A stretch of DNA of 18,800 nucleotides from a virus: IMG/VR virus record IMGVR_UViG_3300035191_000049. One strand, given 5' to 3'. The translations under genes were made by a program, and so were the position numbers. The notes beneath the pieces were generated by a model. It was given only the letters and a program-made list of their open reading frames with translations, searched no databases and was not told where the DNA came from. Below are positions 3,617 through 18,800 of this stretch, one piece after another; the first letter of the stretch is position 1; each line of letters begins with the position of its first letter.

Positions 3617-4309
3617 TCAGAACCCCGTTTCCATTGCCTCTCGACTCTGCTTCCTAAATCTCACAACAAACTGCAATCCGGCTTTATCGATTGGCTGCCT
3701 GGTGTACGCTTTCAGGTATGTCGAGCATACAAATTCAACTGCCAAGCCAAGCTTCCTTGCCAGCGACACGAAAAACCCCGCGGGGAACCTTGCCCCGTTG
3801 AGTTCCCCGTCTCTCCAGGGATGCATTCCACTGGTTGTGTGCTCACCGTTCAACGACTCGTTGTAAGTAGAGAAGTAAACTCCATTTTCAGCCATACGAC
3901 CAAACACAGCGCCCAGGCATGCTTCAACCTGAGAGGGCGTCATATGCGTCATGACCGAGTGAGACCAGGCGAAGTCAAACCGAATCCCCTCGGGCAACAA
4001 AGAAAGATCAAAATCCGTCGACTGAAAAAGAGTAGCTTTCTTATCAACCAGGCCCTGAAGGACGATCTCTTCGCGAGCTGCAGACAGGACGTGTTCGTTG
4101 TGATCAAGGCCAAAATAGTGTCCAGGCTCCAAGTAGTCGATGAAAAAACGTCCAGCCCGCAGTGCCCCACAGCCCACCTCAAGCATGTAGTGGGAAGGAA
4201 CAAGACCATGAGCTTTGGCAAATTCAAATAGAAGCTCTCCATCCTCCCAGGTTTCACAGCCGTGGATTTCTTTTGTACGCCACCACTTATCGCTCGTCGG
4301 CTTAGTCAT
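3617..4309 (-). CDS. class I SAM-dependent methyltransferase
   Basis: Rossmann motif I YMLEVGCGALRAG followed by an acidic residue. A GAGGGG Shine-Dalgarno site lies about 9 nt upstream. This segment has lower GC (about 50%) than the rest of the window. Confidence 0.65.
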   Translation of the reverse strand: MTKPTSDKWWRTKEIHGCETWEDGELLFEFAKAHGLVPSHYMLEVGCGALRAGRFFIDYLEPGHYFGLDHNEHVLSAAREEIVLQGLVDKKATLFQSTDFDLSLLPEGIRFDFAWSHSVMTHMTPSQVEACLGAVFGRMAENGVYFSTYNESLNGEHTTSGMHPWRDGELNGARFPAGFFVSLARKLGLAVEFVCSTYLKAYTRQPIDKAGLQFVVRFRKQSREAMETGF

Positions 4310-4381: not shown

Positions 4382-4618
4382 TCACCGCGAGGATAGACCC
4401 CAATCGTCCCTCACCCCCTCCACCTCTGCCCCGGTACATACCACCCTCGCCACAAAGACCATCACCATCCAGGTAAAAATGATCACTGCTAGCCACAGTA
4501 AAAATCCCAGAGTAGCGCTCCGGACCAACTCCAAAGCACCCTCCTTCTTTCTCTGTTGCATGATGCTCGTGTTTAGCACGTTCATCCTGCAGAAGTCATG
4601 TTCGCTGCGTTTAGCCAA
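4382..4618 (-). CDS. small membrane protein (one TM helix, LGFLLWLAVIIFTWMVMVFVA)
   Basis: ORF-track ORF with a hydrophobic core. The true start may be the internal Met at 4585. Confidence 0.35.
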   Translation of the reverse strand: MAKRSEHDFCRMNVLNTSIMQQRKKEGALELVRSATLGFLLWLAVIIFTWMVMVFVARVVCTGAEVEGVRDDWGLSSR

Positions 4619-5312
4619 CTCTCAGCTTTGCCACACCCCAAGCGTGGTCGTAAATGTGCATCCCCTTGCAACTCCAGATGATTTCACCGGCCGTGACGGT
4701 AACGTCATCAGTACTGATGCACTCGGCCATATACTCCTGCATGAGCCTCACAGCGGCGATATTCGCCGGGAAGCCGTTCCAGAGGTCATTCGACCTGATG
4801 TAGACGAAGAAGTGCAACTCGGGCTCTTCTCCCTCTCGGAGCCCTGATGGGGAGAAAATTCTGGTGTCAATTTGTCGCAGACAGGGCGGGTCATCCAGCG
4901 TTATGTCTTCAGGACGGGCGACAGCAATGCACTCCTGGTTGGAGCCGAAACCGTTTCTGCGGTAGCGGTTGATGATGGCCTCCATCTGGGGAGCCACTCG
5001 CTCGCCATAGGTGTACAGCTCATTTTCCTTGAGAGGCTGGTCTGTCATTAAATAGGGAAGGTACTCCTCTATATATTCCATGGTCGTTGGAGGAGGCACG
5101 TGTGAGAGGTGCTGAGGCATCTCAGGAACGAGGGGGCGCACGCCTGGGTGGGTGACCCGTATCTCCACCCAGTCAAGCTCCCAGCGCTTCTGGCCCTCAT
5201 AGGAACCATGATCAACGACCCACTGTCGCCCATGGGTAAGAACTGCATCGACGGTTTGAAACCAGGCATCGGGCAGGTCCCTGGCTTTGATGTGAATTGG
5301 CTTCAAGGACAT
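4611..5312 (-). CDS. thymidylate synthase-fold enzyme (ThyA/dUMP hydroxymethylase family), divergent
   Basis: Aligns by eye to ThyA core motifs: YTYGERV (compare pVYGkQWR), DDPPCL (catalytic Cys of LAPCH), FVYIRSNDLWNGFPANIAA (compare QLYQRSCDVFLGLPFNIAS, Asn retained), and IIWSCKGMHIYDHAW (compare fVWTGGDTHLYSNH). The ATG at 5312 overlaps the upstream stop as TGATG. Confidence 0.75.
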   Translation of the reverse strand: MSLKPIHIKARDLPDAWFQTVDAVLTHGRQWVVDHGSYEGQKRWELDWVEIRVTHPGVRPLVPEMPQHLSHVPPPTTMEYIEEYLPYLMTDQPLKENELYTYGERVAPQMEAIINRYRRNGFGSNQECIAVARPEDITLDDPPCLRQIDTRIFSPSGLREGEEPELHFFVYIRSNDLWNGFPANIAAVRLMQEYMAECISTDDVTVTAGEIIWSCKGMHIYDHAWGVAKLRVG

Positions 5313-6171: not shown

Positions 6172-6681
6172 CTAATCCTCCTGCTCGATCACCTGAGGAG
6201 CAGGAGGAAGAAGAGCCGTCGCGCTGTTGTTCAGGATCTCCGGGAGTCGAGGACCGATGGCCTCGGCGACGGTACGTCCATCGCTACCGACGAGCCATGG
6301 CAGGAAGAGCTGCTCGGGCGTGATGATGCCGTTCTCGATGGCCTCGAAGGCGCCCTTGAGAAAAATGCTCAGCACGCGGTGCTCTCGCCATCCTCGGGAC
6401 GCCTTGAGACGCTTGAACTTGTCCGGGAGCAAGGTCCCGTGCCGCCTGTGCTTGGCCTCCTCCTTGAGCTTTTCGTCATCAGGTAGGGCGACGTTCATGC
6501 GCGCGTGGTAGCTGACACCTTCATGCTGCCAGACGAACTCCAGCATAACCCTGTAGTTCTCGAAATTTTCCGACCACCGAATCCCGGTTACGCCCCACAA
6601 ACGGAGCAGGTCGGTGATTTCCTCCCTGGACTCACCTGGCGGGACTACCGTGTTCTCGGCATACTTCCTCTTCTTGGGCAT
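6172..6681 (-). CDS. hypothetical protein (169 aa), basic N-terminus
   Basis: ORF-track ORF with a GGAG Shine-Dalgarno site 6 nt upstream. It overlaps the 3' end of the radical SAM gene by about 50 nt. Confidence 0.5.
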   Translation of the reverse strand: MPKKRKYAENTVVPPGESREEITDLLRLWGVTGIRWSENFENYRVMLEFVWQHEGVSYHARMNVALPDDEKLKEEAKHRRHGTLLPDKFKRLKASRGWREHRVLSIFLKGAFEAIENGIITPEQLFLPWLVGSDGRTVAEAIGPRLPEILNNSATALLPPAPQVIEQED

Positions 6682-7420
6682 CTTTCTCTCCGATTGCTTT
6701 GAGATGAAGGGGGCTCAGGTTCGAGTTGAGCCCACAACGGTTGCACTTCATGGTTTTGAGATTGCGCTCAATGGTCAGGACGTCATCGTGGACAGTCCCG
6801 ATTGAGTGGCAGGTGTCGGCCTCGCCAGTAACGATGGTGCCGTCGACGTTGACAGCCGGGCTGCAATGTTTCCCCATCTGCTCGATCGCCCTGATGCCAC
6901 CAGCAAGGCCACCAGTGCTCCTCGTCGCGCTTCTCAGATTGAAGCACGTAGGACTGATACGGGTGGGCTTGATACGATTCTCTTTCGTCCTGCGACAGGG
7001 AAAAATAACGCGGAGGTTCGACTCGAAGCTGACTCCAGGGATACGTCGAAACTTTTCCCTGGCGAGGATCTTCGGATAGTAGCGCGGATCGTTCGTCACC
7101 TGGATGGGCAGCTCCAACTCGCGAGCGAGCTTCACTTTCTCCGGATCATCGATCCATGAGCCGTTCGTTGTGATGAGCGTGGCCTGGTGATAGACGTGAA
7201 ACTTGTCGAGTCGCCTCAAATGGCCTGCCATCTCTTCGAGCTTCGGATGCTCGAAGGGCTCTCCTCCGGTGAGTAGAATGACCTTGGCGGCGACACTCTG
7301 AGCAAAATCGACAGCGGCCTTAAACGTCTCCATAGTCATGTGCTCGCCATCTGGACCTGAGGAATCGACCATGCAGTGCTTGCACCCCATGGTGCAGCAA
7401 TTCGTGACACGGATCAGCAT
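6632..7420 (-). CDS. radical SAM enzyme, QueE/NrdG/PflA-like (paralog 1)
   Basis: N-terminal CTMGCKHC (Cx3Cx2C) and LTGGEPFEHP (GGEP SAM-binding motif). C-terminal extra Cys pairs, ending in CNRCGL. A GAGGGGG Shine-Dalgarno site is present. Parallel in sequence to the gene at 10111-10929. Confidence 0.75.
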   Translation of the reverse strand: MLIRVTNCCTMGCKHCMVDSSGPDGEHMTMETFKAAVDFAQSVAAKVILLTGGEPFEHPKLEEMAGHLRRLDKFHVYHQATLITTNGSWIDDPEKVKLARELELPIQVTNDPRYYPKILAREKFRRIPGVSFESNLRVIFPCRRTKENRIKPTRISPTCFNLRSATRSTGGLAGGIRAIEQMGKHCSPAVNVDGTIVTGEADTCHSIGTVHDDVLTIERNLKTMKCNRCGLNSNLSPLHLKAIGEKDAQEEEVCREHGSPAR

Positions 7421-8715
7421 TGCTCGACCCCCTCAGTAGGCTCCTCTTCTTCAGGAGGTAGTAGCGCTTTCCAGCGGTCTTCCTTGAATCGATGATCGGT
7501 GGCGTAAGGGATGTAACGCACCAGGCCTGCATCGATAAGCCTTTGAAGAATGCCGTTCATGTACTTTACGGCCTCGTTGTGATCGTCGGGCAGTGAGCCT
7601 ATCCGGTTGAGGATCGAGTAGATGTCGTAGTCGCGCCACATGCGCTTTCCGCCCAAATCCCTGAGCATGAGGCCGTGCAACTCTTTCATGAGGGGGGTAA
7701 GCGGCTGCTGTTCGAAGGTGGCGTCCCTGTGAATAAAGGTTGGGTACTGACAGTTGTTGATTTCGACGCAGACCGGGCACTCGTCTGCTGCCTCCCGGAT
7801 ATCCTCATCCGTCATCGATATCATCCTGTGACTGTCACGTGCCGCGAACAGGAGCTGGTTGAGCGTCCAGGGAAGGAGCTTTCCTTCTTCGTCTTTGTTC
7901 GTGAGGAGCAGCTCGCCGATCGTCTTGGCGAGAGCCTCCTTTTTGCCTGGCTCCTTCTCCTCGGGACCCCCCACCTCGATGTCCATTTCTTCCAATCCGT
8001 TGTCTGCCACGCAGTAGACGTGGTCAGAGGTGTTTCCGAGACGGCTCTTGACGACTACTTCAACAGACATAAGAGCCTCAAGCTGCTGCTCGACGAGTTC
8101 GATATCGATCTCTGGGTGTACCTCTTTGAGCCCGTGCTCGATCTCCTCCGCGGACCAAACCGCGCTCATGCCGTCCTTCTTGGTCCCTGCCTTGACCATG
8201 AGCTTGACGATGTTGACGGCAATCGGAGGCCACGTAGCCTCCGGAATATTGACGGACAGCTCTGGCTCGTTTTCGCCGTCATTAGACGAGTGGCAGCAAT
8301 TCTCATCCTCACCGATCGCGGCCACATCATTATCCGGCTCGGGCTTCTGTTCAGGTTTCTGGAACGGCCGCATGTGCATGTCGGGCTGCTCGAACTTCTT
8401 GTCTTCGTTAACGATTGCGTCGCGAAGATCGCAGGTCAGGCGAAATGCTTCTTCAGCGACCCATGTCGCCTCCTCCCCCATTTCTTCGTTCTTTGTCATC
8501 TGGACGTTCAGCGACCAGCCCGAGATGAGCTTGGCGACCATCATGAGGATGCGAGAATTCTCTTCGACGCGAGCCACCTCTTTCGCAGCGTTGACGATGT
8601 CCGAGACACTGCCCTCGGTAGAACGAAGATACTTCTTTCGCACCCTTCCAAGCTCCTCAGCGGCCTCCTTCATCTCTGCGATCAAGTTTCTGATTTTGGG
8701 TTCGTCGGACATCAT
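7414..8715 (-). CDS. hypothetical acidic protein (433 aa)
   Basis: ORF-track ORF with balanced composition. The antisense plus-strand ORF 7675..8901 is Leu/Arg-rich and was judged spurious. A GGGGTGA Shine-Dalgarno site is present. Confidence 0.55.
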   Translation of the reverse strand: MMSDEPKIRNLIAEMKEAAEELGRVRKKYLRSTEGSVSDIVNAAKEVARVEENSRILMMVAKLISGWSLNVQMTKNEEMGEEATWVAEEAFRLTCDLRDAIVNEDKKFEQPDMHMRPFQKPEQKPEPDNDVAAIGEDENCCHSSNDGENEPELSVNIPEATWPPIAVNIVKLMVKAGTKKDGMSAVWSAEEIEHGLKEVHPEIDIELVEQQLEALMSVEVVVKSRLGNTSDHVYCVADNGLEEMDIEVGGPEEKEPGKKEALAKTIGELLLTNKDEEGKLLPWTLNQLLFAARDSHRMISMTDEDIREAADECPVCVEINNCQYPTFIHRDATFEQQPLTPLMKELHGLMLRDLGGKRMWRDYDIYSILNRIGSLPDDHNEAVKYMNGILQRLIDAGLVRYIPYATDHRFKEDRWKALLPPEEEEPTEGVEQC

Positions 8716-9137
8716 TCACCCCGCTTGAGAGAAAAACCTTTCAGGACACCCACGTCATCGCCAGCGGCCTCACAGGTGACCTCTGTGACCTGGATCGAGC
8801 CGAGCAGCCATCGTCCTGGCATCCGAATCATGTGCCTCAGCGCGTCCAGCTTCTTGTTGAGAAATTCCTTCAGTGATCCGCCGACATCCTCCTGGGAGTA
8901 GCGAGCCACCTCTTCTTTATCTTGCCACCAGCCGGGGTCAGGCTCGTGGCCAGGGAGCTGCCAAACGTTCTCGTCTGGACGGAAGGCCAGACTGAAGAAA
9001 GCGTCGGGGTACATTTCCAACAGCTTGTGCGTTGGAGGTCCCCACTCTTTGTCGTCCTCAGGATGTTCTTCTTTGTAGACCTCAAGAAGAGGACGAATCT
9101 TTCCGCCTCGCCGAATACGCAAAAAGCCTGGCATCAT
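8712..9137 (-). CDS. hypothetical protein (141 aa)
   Basis: ORF 8712..9266 trimmed to the internal MMPGF start (9137). A GAGGA Shine-Dalgarno site lies 5 nt upstream. This avoids a 94-nt overlap with the upstream gene. Confidence 0.5.
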   Translation of the reverse strand: MMPGFLRIRRGGKIRPLLEVYKEEHPEDDKEWGPPTHKLLEMYPDAFFSLAFRPDENVWQLPGHEPDPGWWQDKEEVARYSQEDVGGSLKEFLNKKLDALRHMIRMPGRWLLGSIQVTEVTCEAAGDDVGVLKGFSLKRGE

Positions 9138-9171
9138 GTATTCCTCGGGAATCACAGCAACGACGAGAGCG

Positions 9172-9717
9172 TCACCCACTTGCGCCTCCCTGTGCCCACC
9201 GTTCGAAGTCGACCTCTCGCATGTGACCGCTCTTCTTAAAGATGGGAAAAAGACCCATGGGTCCATCGGGCGGAAACATCTCGGCGTCCTTGCCCATGAC
9301 GGGCTCGAAGTTGCAGCCCTGAAGGATCAGGGCCACAAACTCAGAACAGGAGACCTTGTTGTGATTGATGATGGGGTTGAACCACTCGACTCCCGTCACC
9401 TTGTAGAGCGCAAGGAGGATGCCGTTCAGGATGACGGCCTTGAAATCGTATTTCTTGTTAACGTAGTTACGCGCCTTTCGCATCCCCTCCTCGATATCCA
9501 GTCCGACGACCTCGAAGCACATCCAGTCGTCGTAGTTTTTTTTGAGAAGCTCGACTCGCTGGGGAATGACGCCGTCGGAAATAGCATGGGTGACCCACTG
9601 GCCTCCCCACACCGGATCCGTGTAACCCACCCAGGCGTGGTTCCAGTTACCTCCCGTCGCCTTGCGAATGAGCCAACCGAGAAAGTTGTTCGACCTGCTG
9701 AATCCAACGACAATCAT
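9172..9717 (-). CDS. permuted papain-fold enzyme (LRAT-like / NlpC-P60 superfamily), thiol hydrolase or acyltransferase
   Basis: A His-containing segment (NWNHAWVGY) lies N-terminal to a Cys box (SCSEFV, compare LRAT NCEHF). That is the permuted order. The start at 9717 forms an ATGA overlap with the SLOG gene's stop. Confidence 0.5.
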   Translation of the reverse strand: MIVVGFSRSNNFLGWLIRKATGGNWNHAWVGYTDPVWGGQWVTHAISDGVIPQRVELLKKNYDDWMCFEVVGLDIEEGMRKARNYVNKKYDFKAVILNGILLALYKVTGVEWFNPIINHNKVSCSEFVALILQGCNFEPVMGKDAEMFPPDGPMGLFPIFKKSGHMREVDFERWAQGGASG

Positions 9718-10190
9718 CTCAGCCTCTTGAAGATTTCCATGCACCGGAACTTTGCTGTCTCCTGAGCACCTGGAAATCCACTCTCACGGGGGCCGGCGAC
9801 GTTGATGACCTCAAAGTTGGTTAGCAGCGAGGCAAGGTGGTCGTAGCCATCGCTCTCGTTGGGAAACATGTGCAGCTCGTTGATGATGTCGAACCAGGGC
9901 TTTTCCAGTTTGCGGCACAAGCGCACCGTGAGAGCTGTTCCCGTCGAATCAGGGATGCTGGGACAGAGGATGAGAGTCGCGTCCGAGTCCCGGACGTTCC
10001 ACTCCGTGCGCTGAGGATAGTTCGACGTCGGCGCCTCCTGGAGCCTGCGGTATTTCTGGGGGATCTTGCCGTCCTCAGCTCGACGTCCCAGGGGACACCA
10101 GCCCCCTATCTCAATGCCCAGCTTCAGCGCCGCATCGAGACCACCTCGATCGACCCCTGTCTGACCGCCTGATATGACTTTTTTCAACAT
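9714..10190 (-). CDS. SLOG-superfamily protein ('putative molybdenum-carrier'/YpsA-like)
   Basis: The N-terminus ISGGQTGVDRGGLDAALKLGIEIGGWCPLGRRAEDG matches the signature start of the MoCo-carrier-like SLOG family. Downstream TEWNVRDSDATLIL follows. Confidence 0.6.
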   Translation of the reverse strand: MLKKVISGGQTGVDRGGLDAALKLGIEIGGWCPLGRRAEDGKIPQKYRRLQEAPTSNYPQRTEWNVRDSDATLILCPSIPDSTGTALTVRLCRKLEKPWFDIINELHMFPNESDGYDHLASLLTNFEVINVAGPRESGFPGAQETAKFRCMEIFKRLR

Positions 10191-10929
10191 CCTTCAACCC
10201 GCACTTTCCGCAGGGGAGTATTGTTCGTATTCTCTCCATCGCCGCCCTTGACGCCGATTTCCAGTCGGCGCGCAGCTCATCGATCGTCGTCACCTTCATG
10301 CAGCAATCAAGCGGCCCCATTCGGACCTCTCCCCCGGGATGCACGTGAATGCTGCACGTTCCGTCCAACGCTTCCCACATGCGAACGAACGACCGGAAGT
10401 TTGCATCGCCTGCTCCGCGCTTCAATAGTCTGTTCGCGTGCACGCAGTAGCGATTCTTTTCTCTGATTTTCGTTCCAGGAGGAGGTTTCCAGCCGCGCCT
10501 TTTCGCCTTCTCTCCGACGTATATTGAACTTAGATAGCTGATAACCTTCACGTTCTTCAACGCTCGCAGCTCATCAACGAAGTCGAGCTGCGGATAGAAC
10601 CGAAAGTCAGCGGTCACCTGGAATGCGACAGGCGCCAAGGACTTGATCTCTGCGAGGCGCCCTCTGAGCAGGGCGCCACTCGTCCCGACCCTCACGATAA
10701 AACCATGCTCCAGCGCAGCGTCACGAAGGGTCTTCACGACTTCCCAAAAAAGCGGATGTTCGAGCGGCTCGCCACCAGCTATGCCCAGGTCGTTCGAGCC
10801 GATCTTTTTGAAGACGCGAAGCGTTTCTTCGAGCGTCTCCTTGCTCATGTGCTCGGCACCGGGACCGGTCTTCGACACCAGGCAGTGATCACAATCGAGG
10901 GAGCACCGATATGTGAGCATGATGACCAT
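10111..10929 (-). CDS. radical SAM enzyme, QueE/NrdG/PflA-like (paralog 2)
   Basis: CSLDCDHC (Cx3Cx2C) and IAGGEPLEHP. C-terminal Cys pairs, ending in CGKCGL. Same architecture as the gene at 6632-7420. Confidence 0.75.
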   Translation of the reverse strand: MVIMLTYRCSLDCDHCLVSKTGPGAEHMSKETLEETLRVFKKIGSNDLGIAGGEPLEHPLFWEVVKTLRDAALEHGFIVRVGTSGALLRGRLAEIKSLAPVAFQVTADFRFYPQLDFVDELRALKNVKVISYLSSIYVGEKAKRRGWKPPPGTKIREKNRYCVHANRLLKRGAGDANFRSFVRMWEALDGTCSIHVHPGGEVRMGPLDCCMKVTTIDELRADWKSASRAAMERIRTILPCGKCGLKDVEKSHIRRSDRGRSRWSRCGAEAGH

Positions 10930-10935
10930 AAGCCA

Positions 10936-11268
10936 TCAACGACCCTTCTTAGTCTTTGTATTCGACTTGCCACCAGGCCATCGGTCGGCCTTCCCTCGTC
11001 CGACGTGAAAGCTCTCGCCATCCTTCGCGGCGTGCTTCACAAACTGAGCGAGTTCTGGGTCTTTTTCGAGTAACCTCATGTACTGACGCGCCGCTTCATC
11101 AATAGCCGCGTCAGCGCCATTCAATCCCGTGTAGCCATTCTGTAATGCGGCCACCCCTTCATGCGGCGAGCACCCCGGTGCTTTAATCCGGACATCGTAC
11201 TCGTCGACCAATCCCGCGTGCCCCCCCGTCACCGTCAGACGAACCTCCCCACTGAACCTCTTCGGCAT
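10936..11268 (-). CDS. hypothetical protein (110 aa)
   Basis: ORF-track ORF. No family recognised. The GLVDEYD segment is only vaguely dUTPase-like. Confidence 0.45.
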   Translation of the reverse strand: MPKRFSGEVRLTVTGGHAGLVDEYDVRIKAPGCSPHEGVAALQNGYTGLNGADAAIDEAARQYMRLLEKDPELAQFVKHAAKDGESFHVGRGKADRWPGGKSNTKTKKGR

Positions 11269-11681
11269 TACTTTTCCCTCCGAACCCTTCCTTGCTTGAT
11301 CGCTGACCGAAAAAGCCCTTCTACATGCTTTCCCAGATCGATCTGGCTCACCCCCAGCACAGTGTTTGTCATGGCCGCGGTGGTTATCTCATCGATGAAT
11401 TCAGGGTCGATGTCCCAGCCCTCATCGTTGACGCACAGCTCGTCCCCCTCGAAGTAGAACTCCGGGATGTCATCGGCAGTGTGGTCAAATTGAAGTTCAA
11501 GGCCGCTGTCGGGACCGGTCCCGTTTGCGTTGACCACCAAGGGGTCAATCGCTTGCGGCATGTGCTTCTGGATCTCTTCCATCTGCTCGATTATTTCCAA
11601 AGCGCGCCCGACAGCCCCCTGTCGTAGCGACGCCTTCACCTTCTCCAGCTCTGCCCAGAAATCGACGTCTTCCTGTTTCAT
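11268..11681 (-). CDS. hypothetical acidic protein
   Basis: ORF 11268..11705 trimmed to the Met at 11681, which overlaps the upstream stop by 1 nt. Confidence 0.45.
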   Translation of the reverse strand: MKQEDVDFWAELEKVKASLRQGAVGRALEIIEQMEEIQKHMPQAIDPLVVNANGTGPDSGLELQFDHTADDIPEFYFEGDELCVNDEGWDIDPEFIDEITTAAMTNTVLGVSQIDLGKHVEGLFRSAIKQGRVRREK

Positions 11682-12100
11682 CAATCCAACCCTGCCACCT
11701 GACACGACAGCTCGTCGAGCTGCTTCTGCATGTCATCGACGCGATCCTCCAGCTCCGTCACCCTCGCCGCCAAGCTTTTGGCGAAGCGCTCGGTGTGCTT
11801 CACGCAGAGAGCGGTAAACTTCCCGCCGTCAACGATTATGCTGTTCTCATCGACGAATCCTGGCTGCACCCCCTCGACTTCCTGATTGAACACAGACGTC
11901 GCGAAGTTCCAGCAGCCGTCGACATCGCAGGTACACGGGATTGCCTCTACGCCGCGCATGTTCTTGAGCTTGTGACGATCGCGATACTGCTTGCGCGCCT
12001 CAGCTTTCTCGTAACGTCCGGCTGGGAAAAATAGATTGGACATCCCCTTCTTCCACACTCGCCAGTAGATGTGCGGCTGTCCGTTTTTATCAACACCCAT
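11681..12100 (-). CDS. hypothetical protein with C-terminal coiled-coil
   Basis: ORF 11681..12256 trimmed to the internal Met (MGVDKNGQPHIYW...). The N-terminal extension is Ser/Thr-rich, low-complexity, and overlaps the upstream gene. Confidence 0.45.
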   Translation of the reverse strand: MGVDKNGQPHIYWRVWKKGMSNLFFPAGRYEKAEARKQYRDRHKLKNMRGVEAIPCTCDVDGCWNFATSVFNQEVEGVQPGFVDENSIIVDGGKFTALCVKHTERFAKSLAARVTELEDRVDDMQKQLDELSCQVAGLD

Positions 12101-12488
12101 TTCTCTTCTCCCGGTCCAGGTAGTAACCCATGGGGTGACCATGAACCTCCTTAAAACGCTCTTTCGAGATTTCGTGACGCCGCATGAGGCACTCGTCGCA
12201 GATGGGCTCGTACTTGTAGAGCATGTCCCCGTCGTCAGCCCAGTCGATGTAACCATGCCACAGCACCCACGAGCGCTCTGCGGCCGTCGCGCGACAGAGG
12301 GCGCACTGCATACCGACCATACCCTTCAGGCCATGTAGCTTTCTGACGTCGCCACAGCCCCTACAGGTCATGAGTCTGGGGTTGACCCACTTCTTCTCGT
12401 GAATGCACTTCTCGCAGCCCTCGACCATGCACTCGAAGCAACCCCCGACCTCGACGTTCTCAGCGCCACATGCTCTACACTTCGGCAT
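12090..12488 (-). CDS. Cys-rich Zn-finger protein (132 aa)
   Basis: Five CxxC pairs (CRACG, CFEC, CEKC, CRGCG, CDEC). Confidence 0.5.
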   Translation of the reverse strand: MPKCRACGAENVEVGGCFECMVEGCEKCIHEKKWVNPRLMTCRGCGDVRKLHGLKGMVGMQCALCRATAAERSWVLWHGYIDWADDGDMLYKYEPICDECLMRRHEISKERFKEVHGHPMGYYLDREKRNGC

Positions 12489-13532
12489 CTATAGACGCCT
12501 CATCTCGAACTGGAGCGAACGGATCTTTTGGAGCAGCCCATCAACGCCCTGGAATATTTTCCTAACGCGATCCCTTGTCGTCTTTGGCCAGTTGTCCTTG
12601 TCATCGATACTGCCGAGCACTTTATTGGCCTCAAATTCCAGCTCGTCAACGGCTTGGACGGCATCAAACACATCGAACATTTTTTTCTTCTCGGGCACGA
12701 CGGACATGACGACCACATCTTTGGGAATGCTGTAGATCGGGCCACGAAGGATGTAGGCAACCTTCATCCTCAGGACGTTCCCAGTGTATCCCTGGTCAGG
12801 AGGACCAAAGTAGGTCTCGTCAGCCGTTACACCGGCACCTGTCGTCCCTGGGTTCCACTCCTTCAGAACGAGAATGTCGCCCTTCTCGAAGTCACGATCG
12901 TTCTTGCGAACGTCGAAGGTCTTCTCACCCGACTTCATTGCGCGGAATTCGGCTGGCCACGTCTTCAACTCGTGCTCGACGGGCTCACGCTTTTCATGTC
13001 GGCGCCTGAACATCTCCAGCGTCTTGTCAGGAGCACCTACTAAAACATTTCGATCGCCCACTGGATAGACACGTTCTGGATCCGCGCCCATCAGCTCCAC
13101 CGTCTCCTCGACGGAGATTGAGTCGGGCACTGGATCGCTAAACGGAGGCGACGCAGGATAGTCACCGCCGAGCCGCTCCATGAAGCCTACATCCAGCGGG
13201 GCGTCATCACCTTCTTCTTCATGCTTCAAGAGAGCGTCGATCTCTTCCTTCTGTCGCTGCTTCTCGGCCTCGTAGTCGCGGTCCCACTGGGCCAGTTGCT
13301 CTTTCGTGGCAGGCATGTGCTCGCCAGGCTTTCGACAAGCCTCTGGGTCATCGACAAGATGCGGCTCTTGACACCAACCGGAATTCTTTTCTCGCTCGAC
13401 TAGCCCCTTAAAAACAGGGCATTCAGACGTTTCCTTGGTCACTTCTATCGATTCATATTTGCAGCCGTGGACGGGGCAGCAGTGTGTAATGTGGACCCCC
13501 CAGCCCTCCGGTAGTTCTTCTTCGGACATCAT
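12489..13532 (-). CDS. ASCH/DUF3850 (PUA-like) domain protein with Cys/His-rich N-terminus
   Basis: The C-terminal KTWPAEFRAMKSGEKTFDVRKNDRDFEKGDILVLKEW...GYTGNVLRMKVAYI matches the DUF3850/ASCH signature. The N-terminus HCCPVHGC...ECPVFKG is a metal-binding cluster. Confidence 0.6.
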   Translation of the reverse strand: MMSEEELPEGWGVHITHCCPVHGCKYESIEVTKETSECPVFKGLVEREKNSGWCQEPHLVDDPEACRKPGEHMPATKEQLAQWDRDYEAEKQRQKEEIDALLKHEEEGDDAPLDVGFMERLGGDYPASPPFSDPVPDSISVEETVELMGADPERVYPVGDRNVLVGAPDKTLEMFRRRHEKREPVEHELKTWPAEFRAMKSGEKTFDVRKNDRDFEKGDILVLKEWNPGTTGAGVTADETYFGPPDQGYTGNVLRMKVAYILRGPIYSIPKDVVVMSVVPEKKKMFDVFDAVQAVDELEFEANKVLGSIDDKDNWPKTTRDRVRKIFQGVDGLLQKIRSLQFEMRRL

Positions 13533-14137
13533 TCTTCTCCGGGTAAAAAATCCTCTTTTCTGAAGATGGACCAGAGCTGCAGCCCGTTCTCACGGAGCAG
13601 CTCCTCTCCGCCTTCCTGACGGTCGACGACGGCGAGGACGCCCACGACGTTGAGATTCTCCTCGCGAAGCGTCTCGACCGCCTTGAGCGACGAGCCACCG
13701 GACGTGACGACGTCCTCGATGGCAAGGACGCGGCAATCGTTCGAGACCATCCGCTCTCCGTCGAGATCGTAGAGACCCTCGACAGACTGCTTGCGCCCGT
13801 GGCCCTTCTTGTCCAGACGAGGTATGAGCCATGGGATCTTCTTCGCGAAGGGTCCGCCGACGCCCATCAGTCGCGCAACGAGCAGGAGACCTCCCAGCGG
13901 CACAGGAGCGAGCGCCCAGTTCACCCCCGACGGTGTGACGCAGTCCAGGCCGAAGTGGAGAGCGCCCCCGAGGTGCTCACCCACCGAGGGGTGGCAGGCA
14001 GCCAGACGGCAGTCGACGTAGAACTTACTTTTTCGCCCCGAGGCGAGCGTCAGCTCCCTCTCCGTCGAGACCGCGTTGTTCAGCATCGCGTCCTTCAGAC
14101 GCCTCCAAACACGGATCTTCATGATCTCTTCGCGCAT
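13529..14137 (-). CDS. type I phosphoribosyltransferase, orotate-PRTase (PyrE) family
   Basis: LASGRKSKFYVDCR (compare PyrE LKSGRKSPYFF). The PRPP motif VLAIEDVVTSGGS. VVDRQEGG (compare PyrE LDRQERG). The start is ambiguous between 14086, 14137 and 14164. Confidence 0.7.
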   Translation of the reverse strand: MREEIMKIRVWRRLKDAMLNNAVSTERELTLASGRKSKFYVDCRLAACHPSVGEHLGGALHFGLDCVTPSGVNWALAPVPLGGLLLVARLMGVGGPFAKKIPWLIPRLDKKGHGRKQSVEGLYDLDGERMVSNDCRVLAIEDVVTSGGSSLKAVETLREENLNVVGVLAVVDRQEGGEELLRENGLQLWSIFRKEDFLPGEE

Positions 14138-14453
14138 CGACTCCGGGGTCTCCATCGTGCTCATATCTCTCCTCGTCTAGCATCGCGTCGAGCATCTCGG
14201 CCTCGGCGTCCACCGCCTTGCGAGAGCTGCTGTCCGCGAGCTTCTTCCTGATCCCCCTGGCAATCGTCGCCGGGTTGCCGCCCATGTTGAAATGAAACCC
14301 ACTCGCACCCCATGAGACGTAAAGGCGCAGGCCGGGGATGAGACGGATCGAGGTCCCGATCCGTGGGTTCAGCATTCTTGCTGCCGCCTTGGTCGTCTTG
14401 GAGACAATTTTTTTATTGAGTGGCTTACTAGCTAGGGACTTCTGGGATGGCAT
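14025..14453 (-). CDS. possible hypothetical protein overlapping the PRTase 5' end
   Basis: The N-terminal 80 aa have a protein-like frame. The C-terminus is charged and low-complexity. It overlaps the PRTase start by at least 60 nt. The call is uncertain. Confidence 0.2.
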   Translation of the reverse strand: MPSQKSLASKPLNKKIVSKTTKAAARMLNPRIGTSIRLIPGLRLYVSWGASGFHFNMGGNPATIARGIRKKLADSSSRKAVDAEAEMLDAMLDEERYEHDGDPGVDARRDHEDPCLEASEGRDAEQRGLDGEGADARLGAKK

Positions 14454-15531
14454 TATAAAACTCCCCTCCCAGCATCTTCCCGGTTTTTTTCTTACCAAGA
14501 AGATACATCTCTTCGAGATGGGGACCCTTTCCGTTCTTGCGCCCAGGATAAACATCAGGTTCCCACTGGCCATCTGATGTCAATGAACCGAACCGAGACG
14601 TGACGATGTCCGGCCCATAAAAACCACGAGACTTGACAATGTGGCCGTACTCGGAGCCGGCGATCCAGGCACCCCACTGTTTGAAGAAAAAACTGACGTG
14701 CGACTTCTCGCACTGCTCTTTGATGTCGTGGACCCACCGGGGGTGCATGGGACGAGCACCAGGGCCACTCTCTCCGCCCACGATCACCCACTGGATGCCG
14801 CGGTCACGAGCTGCCCAATACTTGAAGTCGTCCCACTCTCCCGGATTGGCGATTGGGTATGTAGCGTCCTCTTCTACCTCGCCGATCCCTGGCATCCGTA
14901 GCTTGACCGGCCCGAGCAGCGGTTCGAGGGAGAGGAATCGAATTCGAGCCGGCACCCTGAGCAGGTGGGGGATGCGCAGGTCGGCTGCTTCCTGATTTTC
15001 GACGGAGACGCCGCACCAGATGTGAGGAGGGAGCCACGCCTTTCTGACACGAGCATCGCGCTCTTCGATCTCGTCGAGCCCAACACAGATCTCGACAGGA
15101 CCCTTGGGCTCGTAGGGCGTGACCCATTTCTGAACGTACTTCGCCATGCGCTCGGGGCGCTTGGTCAGGATGAGATAGACGTGATGGTCGGCCTCGAACA
15201 TCATTTCGAAGACCTTGTCGATCCACTCGTCTGGCACCGATTGATGGAACAGGTCGCCCATCAGGCAGATAGCGATGCGGCGAGAGCGGGTCCACCGATT
15301 CGGCTTCTCCAGCTCCTTCTCGAAGAGCTTGGCCTGACCGGTCCAATTGCCGTCTTTAGTCAGCCCGTGAAAGTGCTCTCCAGGCTTCGAAAAACGCGCT
15401 GCCTGACGTTCGGCCCAGCAGTTATCACAACCGCCGAGGTTGTTGTAGAATTCCTCCTCGTCTTCGTGTGAACAGCCCTTCACAGGGTTGAGCGTCGCGT
15501 CGACGTATTCTATTTTTGTCCGATCGCCCAT
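14428..15531 (-). CDS. phage Gp37/Gp68 family protein (DUF5131), three-Cys motif
   Basis: The N-terminus DRTKIEYVDATLNPVKGC...GGCDNCWAE matches the family signature (tkIeWt..wNp..GC...GCdnCYA). The start is set at the Met that overlaps the upstream stop as TGATG. Confidence 0.6.
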   Translation of the reverse strand: MGDRTKIEYVDATLNPVKGCSHEDEEEFYNNLGGCDNCWAERQAARFSKPGEHFHGLTKDGNWTGQAKLFEKELEKPNRWTRSRRIAICLMGDLFHQSVPDEWIDKVFEMMFEADHHVYLILTKRPERMAKYVQKWVTPYEPKGPVEICVGLDEIEERDARVRKAWLPPHIWCGVSVENQEAADLRIPHLLRVPARIRFLSLEPLLGPVKLRMPGIGEVEEDATYPIANPGEWDDFKYWAARDRGIQWVIVGGESGPGARPMHPRWVHDIKEQCEKSHVSFFFKQWGAWIAGSEYGHIVKSRGFYGPDIVTSRFGSLTSDGQWEPDVYPGRKNGKGPHLEEMYLLGKKKTGKMLGGEFYNAIPEVPS

Positions 15532-16070
15532 CAGGCTGCGTTCTTCTTCCTGGGCCAGAGCTTGTCCTTTGCCCACCGCACCAAACCGCCATGCTCCGGG
15601 GCGTAGGCTTCCATTTCCCCAGAAAGACGGTTCTTATGCATCAGAAAGCACCAGTTCGACCCGCTTTTTCCGATGGCATTACCCTTTAGGAGAAGGAATG
15701 TCTCGTGGACGAGTCCCTCCTTCACTACCTCCGCCCTCTGGACAGAAAGGATTGGAAGGGGGCACTGGTCGAAAAGGCGTTCCCGGCCAACGCCAGGGAA
15801 TACCTCGACGATGCCAGGCTTGCGGATGTAGGCGGTGCCCTCAAATCCATCTTCGAGAACAAACTCATACTGACCCGGACGTACCTTGGGCAGCTTCACG
15901 TGGTCGCCGCTATAGTCGATGCGTTTGGCCAGATAGAGAGCCTCAAAGACGTCGTCGGCGAAGCACACGACTGAACGATAGCGATCAAACGCCCTAAACA
16001 CTGAGACCATATCAGCAACACTGACCCTCATCTCAGGCAGAGGGTGCCTTCCGTCGTCAATGGTGACCAT
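15531..16070 (-). CDS. hypothetical protein (179 aa)
   Basis: ORF-track ORF. A GGAG Shine-Dalgarno site lies 7 nt upstream. Confidence 0.5.
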   Translation of the reverse strand: MVTIDDGRHPLPEMRVSVADMVSVFRAFDRYRSVVCFADDVFEALYLAKRIDYSGDHVKLPKVRPGQYEFVLEDGFEGTAYIRKPGIVEVFPGVGRERLFDQCPLPILSVQRAEVVKEGLVHETFLLLKGNAIGKSGSNWCFLMHKNRLSGEMEAYAPEHGGLVRWAKDKLWPRKKNAA

Positions 16071-17047: not shown

Positions 17048-17665
17048 TCAGATTGTTCCGGCGCCGCGGGTAAAGTCGGGGATAACCTCCTCGTCGAGGC
17101 AGACCCAAAGATGCAGCACGTAGGGATGAACGTTTACGTAATTTTCTTTCTTTGGAAGCACTTGGAGGGCGGTTCTATCGCCCAGGAAAAGCTCTTTGAC
17201 GTCCCGAAGCTCTTCCCAGGTGGGAAGACGATCCTGGAACGACGTCGACAGGTGCATCCAGCGCCGGCCGTCCTCCTCGCGATCGCCGGAGAGGATGACT
17301 CGCTGCCCCCTGACGGACTGATACCGGGCGCCGTTGAGGTTCGTATCGAGCACCTGCCAGTGGGGAGGAAGGATCTTGGGTAGGTATTCGCTGACCCAGT
17401 CTGCGACCTCGGCATCAAGTACCAACTCGACCTCGCCCTTCGAGAACTTCGCAATGAATTCCAGCTTCTTGCGGACCTCGTCCCACTTATCCATGAGCGC
17501 GAGATTGAAGGCTTCCTCCAGACTGGCGAACACCCAAGAGAATTGCCGCTCGTCGCAGCCCGAAAGCCCCTCACGGGTAAAACCGTAGCTGTCCAGCATC
17601 CGCTTCAGCTTGTCCTTGAGAGCCGCGGGGGTAAGCGGCTTGCGCTTGCGCTTTTTATTGCCCAT
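17048..17665 (-). CDS. hypothetical protein (205 aa) with basic KKRKRK N-terminus
   Basis: ORF-track ORF. Its start overlaps the stop of the kinase gene by 1 nt. Confidence 0.5.
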   Translation of the reverse strand: MGNKKRKRKPLTPAALKDKLKRMLDSYGFTREGLSGCDERQFSWVFASLEEAFNLALMDKWDEVRKKLEFIAKFSKGEVELVLDAEVADWVSEYLPKILPPHWQVLDTNLNGARYQSVRGQRVILSGDREEDGRRWMHLSTSFQDRLPTWEELRDVKELFLGDRTALQVLPKKENYVNVHPYVLHLWVCLDEEVIPDFTRGAGTI

Positions 17666-18372
17666 CAGAAGGATCTAAGGTTGTCTTCGATGGCGGCGAC
17701 GCACGCCTCAAACACCTCATCCTCAGGATGGTTTGCATCTATGTGAACAAAGTGCTTGCCAGGCGCGACATAGGACGAGCCGCCCATCTTCGGAAGCCGG
17801 CGATAGAACTCGGCGAGCCGTACTTGAAGCTCGTCCAGCTCGTAGATTTCTTTCATCTTATGACGGCACTCGCGCCGATTCGCTGCCTCGTCACAATCAA
17901 CGTTGAGAACCAGGACCAGGTCGGGTTCGATGGCATAACTGTGGAGCTTCATCAGCCACTTGAGAAATGACTCCTTATCGACGTGGTCAGAGGTCAACGA
18001 CTGGTAGGCCAATGTCGAATACATGTAGCGATCGCACAACACCCACTTCCCTTTGGCCAGAGCAGGCTCGATGACGTGAGCGATATGGTCCATTCGATCG
18101 GCCACAAACAAAAGGGCCATCGTCTCAGCCGGTGGCTTCCAGCCACCCTGACCATCACAAGGAATGATCCCTCTCAGAATCTTACGAATAAGCTTTCCGC
18201 ATGGTCGCTCCGTCGGCTGATGTTCTGAAGCAACTCCCGGATATTTTCCACTTTCGACAGATACCTGCATGTAGCCGTATAACCGTTGAGCGACTGTTGT
18301 GGTTCCGGATCCGTCAATCCCTTCGAGGACTATGAACTTACCCCTTTTCATCGACCCAATCCTTGCTGTCAT
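17665..18372 (-). CDS. thymidylate kinase-like (d)NMP kinase
   Basis: P-loop KFIVLEGIDGSGTTT. The Tmk DRY motif in LCDRYMYSTLAYQ. The start may be the Met at 18351. Confidence 0.7.
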   Translation of the reverse strand: MTARIGSMKRGKFIVLEGIDGSGTTTVAQRLYGYMQVSVESGKYPGVASEHQPTERPCGKLIRKILRGIIPCDGQGGWKPPAETMALLFVADRMDHIAHVIEPALAKGKWVLCDRYMYSTLAYQSLTSDHVDKESFLKWLMKLHSYAIEPDLVLVLNVDCDEAANRRECRHKMKEIYELDELQVRLAEFYRRLPKMGGSSYVAPGKHFVHIDANHPEDEVFEACVAAIEDNLRSF

Positions 18373-18800
18373 GAAAAGCTATTGGCTTTTCGAGCCGTTT
18401 CTTTATGAGGTCGGTGTCACCTTTCTCGATGGCGAACCACTGGCGCTCCTCGGATTCACAGACAGCAGGCATCGTTCCGCTACCAGCCATGGGATCGAGG
18501 ACCCTGTCACCAGGATTCGTCGCCAGAAGAAGACACCGGCGAATGAGCTTTGTACTGAGCTGGGGTCCGCTCCAGCCCTCGGCCTTGTACTTGGGATGCC
18601 GCACCGTTGGGACATCGGTCCAGATATCGGAGACCGTGACGCCCTCCTTCATCTTACCTCGGTGACCGCCGTAGTCTCGAAGATCCTTCTTGCAGTGGCG
18701 GCACACCTCGATAGGCATCCGCACCTTGTTGAGCACGCGCGGCTTGCCCTTCGAGAAGTGGATGATGCCGTAGTGCGCGCGATAGAGACCCTTAGCGCGG
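18338..18800 (-). CDS. DNA methyltransferase, N6-adenine/N4-cytosine family (C-terminal part, 5'-truncated by the window edge)
   Basis: VLDPMAGSGT, the motif I of the N6_N4 family, lies at the C-terminus, which is the beta-class arrangement. The reading frame stays open to position 18800 (...AHYGIIHFSKGKPRVLNKVRMPIEV). Confidence 0.65.
   Translation of the reverse strand, partial: RAKGLYRAHYGIIHFSKGKPRVLNKVRMPIEVCRHCKKDLRDYGGHRGKMKEGVTVSDIWTDVPTVRHPKYKAEGWSGPQLSTKLIRRCLLLATNPGDRVLDPMAGSGTMPAVCESEERQWFAIEKGDTDLIKKRLEKPIAFHDSKDWVDEKG

Follow-up and report, generated by a model that had tools for sequence, protein, structure and literature searches.

Enzymes of the ThyA superfamily can be told apart at a few diagnostic positions, numbered here as in Escherichia coli ThyA. 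Asn at N177 goes with deoxyuridine monophosphate (dUMP) as a substrate and Asp with deoxycytidine monophosphate (dCMP), a hydrophobic residue at L143 goes with synthases and an acidic one with hydroxymethylases, and a D169N change marks the flavin-dependent 5-hydroxy-dCMP synthases (PMC13326640). T4 gp42, a dCMP hydroxymethylase, and MilA, a 318-residue hydroxymethylase that acts on cytidine monophosphate (CMP), have Asp at N177, and so do the flavin-dependent 5-hydroxy-dCMP synthases (HY126 AfhB, PDB 9iqc/9iqu, and RB69 gp48), in which D169 is Asn. The dUMP hydroxymethylases (SPO1 gp29 and the enzymes of M6, ViI/PhaxI, and Ab19) combine Asn at N177 with Asp at L143 and at D169, and their genes are placed near modification genes (PMC8989533). 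The methanogen-type ThyA (TIGR03283; e.g., MJ0757 of M. jannaschii) has a short architecture without the C-terminal segment of ThyA. Here, we analyze a gene of the same short architecture (hereafter thyA) that occupies 233 codons on the minus strand of an 18,800-nucleotide (nt) stretch of viral DNA, IMG/VR record IMGVR_UViG_3300035191_000049, which we refer to as the window. Its product reads Asn/Asp/Asp at N177, L143, and D169, i.e., it is of the uracil type and not a flavin hydroxylase, and carries the acidic residue tied to hydroxymethylation. From sequence comparisons, we consider that the gene probably encodes a host-derived short-type thymidylate synthase that converts dUMP to deoxythymidine monophosphate (dTMP), a phage auxiliary metabolic gene raising the dTMP supply.

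First, we determined whether thyA is a genuine gene of this superfamily. Its start codon is an ATG at 5312-5310, with an AGGAG Shine-Dalgarno sequence ~8 nt 5' of it, and an independent Joint Genome Institute gene call returned the same 233-residue product on other contigs. An identical protein is found on eight contigs from several samples, one of them 182,770 bp long. The protein matches Pfam PF00303 with 33 bits (gathering cut-off 24.3; E 4.6e-8), it carries the catalytic Cys of the superfamily together with its Arg-Ser, His, and Tyr (C144, R173, S174, H219, and Y221), and an AlphaFold model built with 43 relatives has the ThyA fold, with a predicted local distance difference test score of 94.7 and a predicted template modeling score of 0.91. 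These findings confirm that the ThyA-like open reading frame (ORF) is real and that its resemblance to ThyA is beyond chance, which bears out a preliminary description that had placed a divergent enzyme of this fold here and had quoted two of its motifs. No characterized close relative of the protein was found in PDB or in 50,697 phage records: the PDB sequence search gave weak, partial matches only (best E 0.0017), and the phage records gave a single weak match, in a T4-like Yersinia pestis phage. In a BFVD structure search, the matches were all at ≤20% identity and had generic names.

We next mapped the active-site residues against E. coli ThyA. Hidden Markov model (HMM), profile-profile, and MAFFT alignments were concordant over the C-terminal two thirds of the protein. 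Catalytic C146 is kept as C144, as are Y94 (Y102), the phosphate-binding R166 and S167 (R173 and S174), the pterin-binding D169 (D176), the uracil-specifying N177 (N184), and H207 and Y209 (H219 and Y221). In contrast, the phosphate-binding arginines R126 and R127, which in canonical ThyA are lent by the partner subunit, are replaced by N125 and Q126, L143 by D141, H147 by L145, and Q165 by I172, a position that is Phe in most relatives. In the N-terminal half, MAFFT does not align the protein reliably with E. coli ThyA, and equivalents of R21 and E58 are named as candidates only: R43 and E98 are invariant, while E83 aligns with E58 in the helix but varies between Glu, Asp, and Gln across the family, which thus has no clear E58 equivalent. 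The preliminary description had noted that the uracil-specifying Asn is kept, at a position where dCMP hydroxymethylases have Asp, and that the His following the catalytic Cys is replaced, and both points hold. However, the change from PCH to PCL, which it had counted among the traits fitting a dUMP C5-modifying enzyme, is not diagnostic, because His147 is not essential in ThyA and is Val in the enzymes of Bacillus subtilis and phage phi3T.

The protein is, as had been described, some 30 residues shorter than canonical ThyA (233 versus 264 residues in E. coli), a net figure that results from two losses and from insertions, at residues 54-77 and 153-165, that make up for part of them. One loss comprises ~45 C-terminal residues. 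Only 12 residues follow Y221, versus 55 after Y209 in E. coli ThyA, so that the segment that closes over the folate is absent along with the terminal carboxylate. The other loss comprises ~17 residues around W80/W83. The stretch between helix 78-89 and Y102 is shorter by this amount and has no Trp, in a part of the protein where the alignment is less certain. Rather than the intact folate-reduction residues and C-terminal carboxylate that, by the preliminary description, would have counted against its proposal, the alignments thus reveal the absence of the C terminus and of other folate-closing elements. Compared with canonical ThyA (E. coli, L. casei, and human), the protein therefore keeps Asp169 and Asn177 but lacks the C-terminal closing segment, the hydrophobic L143 with W80/W83, and R126'/R127'.

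We then asked how widespread these traits are. At E ≤ 1e-3, a search with the protein found 4374 relatives, which form 619 clusters at 50% identity, and database sources name members of the family thymidylate synthase. Thirteen columns (Y102, N125, Q126, D141, C144, L145, R146, R173, S174, D176, N184, H219, and Y221) read alike across the 118 close and 79 genome-encoded members. No phage or cellular member departs from C144 or L145, D141 is conserved to at least 90% in both groups, and N125-Q126 is invariant in all 118 close and all 79 genome-encoded members. In Bathyarchaeia, Glu takes the D141 position and Arg-Gln positions 125-126. PCL, the short C terminus, Asp141, and Asn125-Gln126 are family-wide traits and not peculiarities of the window gene. 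Neither this nor the replacements of L143 and R126/R127 had been part of the preliminary description. The best curated model for the window protein is the methanogen-type TIGR03283, on which residues 7-225 align with model positions 2-198 of 201, and ten further bacterial and archaeal members also align with it end to end, the relatives scoring 28-120 bits. Since the window protein, with 63.8 bits, stays below the cut-off of 174.55, the short branch is, on this evidence, a sister of the methanogen-type thymidylate synthase and not a member. Its carriers are bacteria, Bathyarchaeia, and phages, and not methanogens, the two types having been compared via the model only.

Family members are common in cellular genomes. 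In a scan of GTDB genomes, one for each species, we detected at least 572 carrier species, including complete chromosomes. Among the best 80, from which taxonomy was read, most are Desulfobacterales, Desulfatiglandales, and Syntrophobacterales, with some Actinomycetota (Aquicultor and Anoxymicrobiaceae) and Dehalococcoidales, and one carrier is a complete chromosome of 5.09 Mb, another a contig of 2.84 Mb. When a distant member, the one closest to TIGR03283, served as the query, a Bathyarchaeia clade was recovered, with Bathyarchaeia sequences only and no methanogen sequence. The cellular neighbors identified by Pfam are lysA, hom, and thrC. By eye, an rlmN-like radical S-adenosylmethionine (SAM) gene is next in 40 of 80 loci, with hisG, hisI, gyrB, and dnaN nearby. 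The best explanation for this distribution is that many strict anaerobes, i.e., Desulfobacterota, some Actinomycetota, Dehalococcoidales, and Bathyarchaeia, have the short branch as their chromosomal ThyA. The preliminary description had judged that the window gene fits a housekeeping thymidylate synthase less well. This finds no support, since the same traits occur in the chromosomal genes of these species and the closest homologue of the window protein is itself chromosomal.

Many family members (P0121, P0122, P0124, P0126, P0166, and P0178, of 550-990 residues) contain inteins with LAGLIDADG endonuclease domains, and one protein has two of them. The inteins sit directly before the catalytic Cys (DPP|C...HN|CLR), at Arg173/Ser174 (YFR|C...HN|SWD), and before Thr101 of the YTYG motif. 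Being located exactly at C144, R173/S174, and Y100/T101, they mark the conserved functional core.

The nearest relatives link the gene to both bacteria and large phages. The closest homologue (P0002, 78% identity), which has the same residue as the window protein at every active-site position mapped, lies on bacterial contigs where it adjoins dsrC copies, dsrM/dsrK-like genes, a gene for a GGDEF protein, and genes for large multihaem cytochromes (L092 33-12924; L093 1-8176). These dsr and cytochrome neighbors hint that the phage host lineage is a sulfate- or sulfur-metabolizing bacterium. Another homologue, P0005 (73% identity), lies on a 211-kb contig of ordinary bacterial genes. Homologues at 72-76% identity are found in three jumbo phages (180-200-kb contigs with T4-like portal, protease, and capsid genes), where thyA directly follows DNA polymerase A. 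In yet another phage, the 290-kb contig L094, which shares radical-SAM, cpYpsA, and other genes with the window, ThyA is only 55% identical and is encoded elsewhere in the module. Because the gene has a close cellular relative while its phage loci differ, thyA has moved between bacteria and phages fairly recently and is not tied to its neighbors in the window. We had considered a functional link of thyA to the flanking methyltransferase, the two radical-SAM proteins, and cpYpsA, and rejected it since related phages hold thyA beside a DNA polymerase and the ThyA of L094 is both more distant and differently placed. The pair formed by thyA and the methyltransferase gene is kept only in near-identical contigs and not in other phages with this thyA. 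Since almost the same gene is present in the chromosomes of sulfate-reducing and other anaerobes, the likeliest reading of the window gene is that it was borrowed for metabolism and does not serve DNA modification.

In such a scenario, the phage would have taken thyA from its host lineage and would use it while replicating to turn dUMP into dTMP, the next step being carried out by its own thymidylate kinase. The conserved residues indicate that dUMP would be held by R173/S174 (phosphate), H219/Y221 (3'-OH), and N184 (uracil O4/N3), with Cys144 placed as the nucleophile for C6, and that Asp176 is kept as expected with a methylene-pterin cofactor (tetrahydrofolate in bacterial hosts). Transfer of the methylene to C5, followed by its reduction to a methyl group, would complete the reaction. 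With Asn-Gln instead of the partner-subunit arginines, the enzyme might act as a monomer. If it is a thymidylate synthase, thyA is an ordinary auxiliary metabolic gene that documents gene flow between sulfate-reducer-type bacteria and jumbo phages and offers a clue to the host.

Several points weigh against a thymidylate synthase. The elements associated with the hydride step are missing, namely the canonical C terminus, the W80/W83 segment, His147, and Leu143, and canonical ThyA reportedly needs its C terminus for hydride transfer, as Carreras, Climie, and Santi are said to have found in 1992. Besides falling short of the TIGR03283 cut-off, the protein scores only 12-24 bits on the canonical models TIGR03284 and PRK01827, with cut-offs of 108-405. 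The residue at the L143 position is acidic (Asp, or Glu in Bathyarchaeia), which in characterized relatives goes with hydroxymethyl products (PMC13326640). The family profile prefers SPO1 gp29 (E 5.3e-11) over E. coli ThyA (4.6e-7). The top structural neighbor is a flavin-dependent dCMP hydroxylase (9iqc, 16% identity) and not a synthase, a likeness that in our view probably reflects mainly a shared compactness. Although we detected no ThyX or canonical ThyA in 2.3 Mb of flanking sequence, these are flanks only, so a second synthase could be encoded elsewhere in the carriers. Finally, the biochemistry of archaeal ThyA has been called scarce and its cofactor use unknown (PMC9931769; PMC9012536), and this very large subfamily, with thousands of sequences, is named thymidylate synthase purely by homology. 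Many anaerobic bacteria and archaea have it as their ThyA-family gene, although several residues held essential in canonical ThyA are missing from it.

It is conceivable, but on the sequence evidence unlikely, that the whole short branch, i.e., the phage, Desulfobacterota, and Bathyarchaeia enzymes and perhaps the methanogen type, is mechanistically distinct, either stopping at 5-hydroxymethyl-dUMP or using a non-folate hydride donor such as flavin. If true, this would explain why, to our knowledge, dTMP formation in vitro has never been demonstrated for the archaeal-type enzyme. The two variants of this idea can also be weighed for the window protein by itself.

The first is that the window protein is a dUMP hydroxymethylase, in which, with the C-terminal lid absent, Asp141 would admit and activate water and the exocyclic methylene would be hydrated to 5-hydroxymethyl-dUMP, and this nucleotide, once phosphorylated, would enter phage DNA. 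The preliminary description had proposed a dUMP C5-modifying enzyme such as a hydroxymethylase, and the idea was reasonable, more so than could be known at the time. Asp is found at the L143 position in T4 gp42, in MilA, and in all four dUMP hydroxymethylases that we aligned (SPO1 gp29, M6, PhaxI of the ViI group, and Ab19), the uracil-specifying Asn is in place, the C terminus and the W80/W83 shield are gone, and the window encodes a nucleotide kinase. SPO1 gp29 itself scores best on TIGR03283 (83.6 bits), and, as noted above, it matches the family profile better than E. coli ThyA does, the match to T4 gp42 being weak (E 1.4e-3). The short, archaeal-like branch, to which gp29 (L090 14101-15252) would then belong, appears to hold at least one non-synthase.

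However, Asp141 and the accompanying traits are equally conserved in chromosomal genes that sit in a housekeeping context in hundreds of bacteria and archaea, which is why the L143 rule cannot discriminate within the short branch. We know of no use for hydroxymethyl-dUMP in the anaerobic bacteria and archaea that carry the family. Moreover, all four dUMP hydroxymethylases have Asn both after the catalytic Cys (147) and before the Arg-Ser (165), where the family has hydrophobic residues, Leu and Phe/Ile, respectively, and they share the canonical E58 helix with the motif ESLWxLxGR, which the family does not have, this three-part signature being one that we derived from the four sequences and not a published definition. 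Positions 147 and 165 both lie within 6 Å of C5 of dUMP in E. coli ThyA (PMC13326640). The four enzymes further differ from the window protein in keeping at least one partner arginine and in carrying a C-terminal extension of ~100-130 residues.

Companion genes also argue against hydroxymethylation. At the M6 and PhaxI loci, genes for dCMP deaminase or dUTPase lie close to the hydroxymethylase gene, joined in M6 by genes of the pyridoxal-phosphate and radical-SAM types, which is not the case for the window gene. Within ±10 kb of the family gene in 86 phage loci, there was no homologue of the M6/ViI modification genes (5-HMUDK, aGPT-Pplase, and others), while dUTPase occurred in three loci and dCMP deaminase in two. 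Genes for dUTPase/dTTPase, dCMP deaminase, 5-HMUDK, and aGPT-Pplase are likewise absent from the window, which is one part of a genome of roughly 183 kb. Finally, the kinase of the window belongs to the Tmk type of thymidylate kinases and is full length. Taken together, these findings make it improbable that the window protein is a hydroxymethylase: the acidic residue at L143 and the kinship of gp29 with TIGR03283, neither of them part of the original proposal, speak for it, while the residues at 147 and 165, the E58 helix, and the pathway genes do not.

The second, still less probable, possibility is a thymidylate synthase with another reduction chemistry, in which the methylene would come from the pterin but the hydride from, e.g., a loosely bound reduced flavin, so that the pterin would stay in the tetrahydro form and dihydrofolate reductase would be unneeded. 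All the folate-aligning elements for canonical hydride transfer are indeed missing. Krone et al. are said to have purified the Methanobacterium enzyme in 1994 and to have seen partial reactions only, and UniProt annotates the archaeal type with an unknown cosubstrate. No folA adjoined thyA at the 80 genome loci or the 86 phage loci covered, a result that says little about whole genomes. That a short ThyA fold can hold flavin at the folate site, as in the structural neighbor, keeps a non-folate hydride donor in play at low probability. Nevertheless, the idea is purely inferential, we detected no flavin site, and Asp176 is kept at D169, where flavin-dependent hydroxylases have Asn. As for a pyrimidine nucleotide 5-hydroxylase dependent on flavin and O2, like AfhB of phage HY126 or RB69 gp48, we rejected this very remote candidate because the protein lacks the D169N signature, it has the uracil-type Asn and not Asp (cytosine) at the substrate position, identity to 9iqc is low, and dependence on O2 would make little sense for a family that is chromosomal in strict anaerobes (Desulfobacterota and Bathyarchaeia).

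A host-derived thymidylate synthase is hence the reading that we favor for the window gene. Because the subfamily carries an acidic residue otherwise linked to hydroxymethylation, it also bears on the use of the rule that an acidic L143 means a hydroxymethylase when phage DNA modification is predicted outside the canonical branch.

The features of the window are listed in Table 1. The array of tRNA genes and the transfer-messenger RNA (tmRNA) gene suggest a large phage. The 73-residue ORF upstream of thyA has no family match; it is weakly similar to an ORF of L094, which lies apart from thyA in that phage. Part of the block at 6632-15576 (the second radical-SAM protein, cpYpsA, and several unknowns) is kept at 45-69% identity in L094 (12000-18000), and the block may serve to modify nucleotides or nucleic acids. 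The ORF matching the N6/N4 DNA methylase family starts near the end of the window, and the gene may be longer upstream.

Table 1. Coordinates of thyA, its mapped motifs, and the other features of the window
Feature	Position	Strand	Remarks
Short-type ThyA-family enzyme gene, 233 residues, probable thymidylate synthase	4611-5312	minus	233 codons + stop
Tyr102 (= E. coli Y94, general base region)	5007-5009	minus	in invariant Y-T-Y-G motif
Asn125-Gln126, replacing R126'/R127'	4935-4940	minus	HMM alignments, GSNQ vs DSRR
DDPPCL, residues 140-145 (D140-D141-P142-P143-C144-L145)	4878-4895	minus	read from sequence
RSND...GFPANIA, residues 173-186 (R173-S174-N175-D176 ... G180-F181-P182-A183-N184-I185-A186)	4755-4796	minus	read from sequence
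His219-Ile-Tyr221 (= H207/Y209, deoxyribose 3'-OH binding)	4650-4658	minus	
Upstream ORF, 73 residues	5312-5533	minus	stop shares one base with thyA start (TGATG)
Class I SAM-dependent methyltransferase (Methyltransf_12/25)	3617-4309	minus	300 nt downstream of thyA, ORF of ~67 residues between
Array of ten tRNA genes (Pro x2, Ser, Asp, Phe, Gln x2, Asn, Lys x2)	322-2882	minus	
tmRNA gene	537-900	minus	tag peptide VNTDNYHEAPLARAA
Radical-SAM proteins, two	6632-7420, 10111-10929	minus	
Circularly permuted YpsA/SLOG protein (cpYpsA)	9714-10190	minus	
DUF3850 protein	12489-13532	minus	
Phosphoribosyltransferase-like protein	13529-14164	minus	
DUF5131 protein	14428-15576	minus	
Thymidylate kinase, Tmk-type, full length	17665-18372	minus	Pfam PF02223, E 1.2e-29; same strand as thyA, 12 kb off
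ORF matching C-terminal part of N6/N4 DNA methylase family	18338-18736	minus	PF01555, model 122-212/221, E 6.6e-13

A look at the viral contigs that carry this thyA offers a glimpse of its usual company. On 80 of them, frequent neighbors are genes for RecA, primase, DnaB, UDG-polymerase fusions, a PD-(D/E)XK nuclease, and ribonucleotide reductase. In the fusions, a uracil-DNA-glycosylase (UDG)-superfamily domain is attached N-terminally to the DNA polymerase, which is of family A in 11 loci and of family B in 10 (e.g., L170 6689-9070 and L129 4805-8056). Two further proteins, which might be a sign of 7-deazaguanine DNA modification, recur in viral thyA loci: a small radical-SAM protein with a QueE-like N terminus is encoded in 12 of them (e.g., L160 6519-7205), and a 463-residue protein without a Pfam match in nine (e.g., L154 11723-13114).

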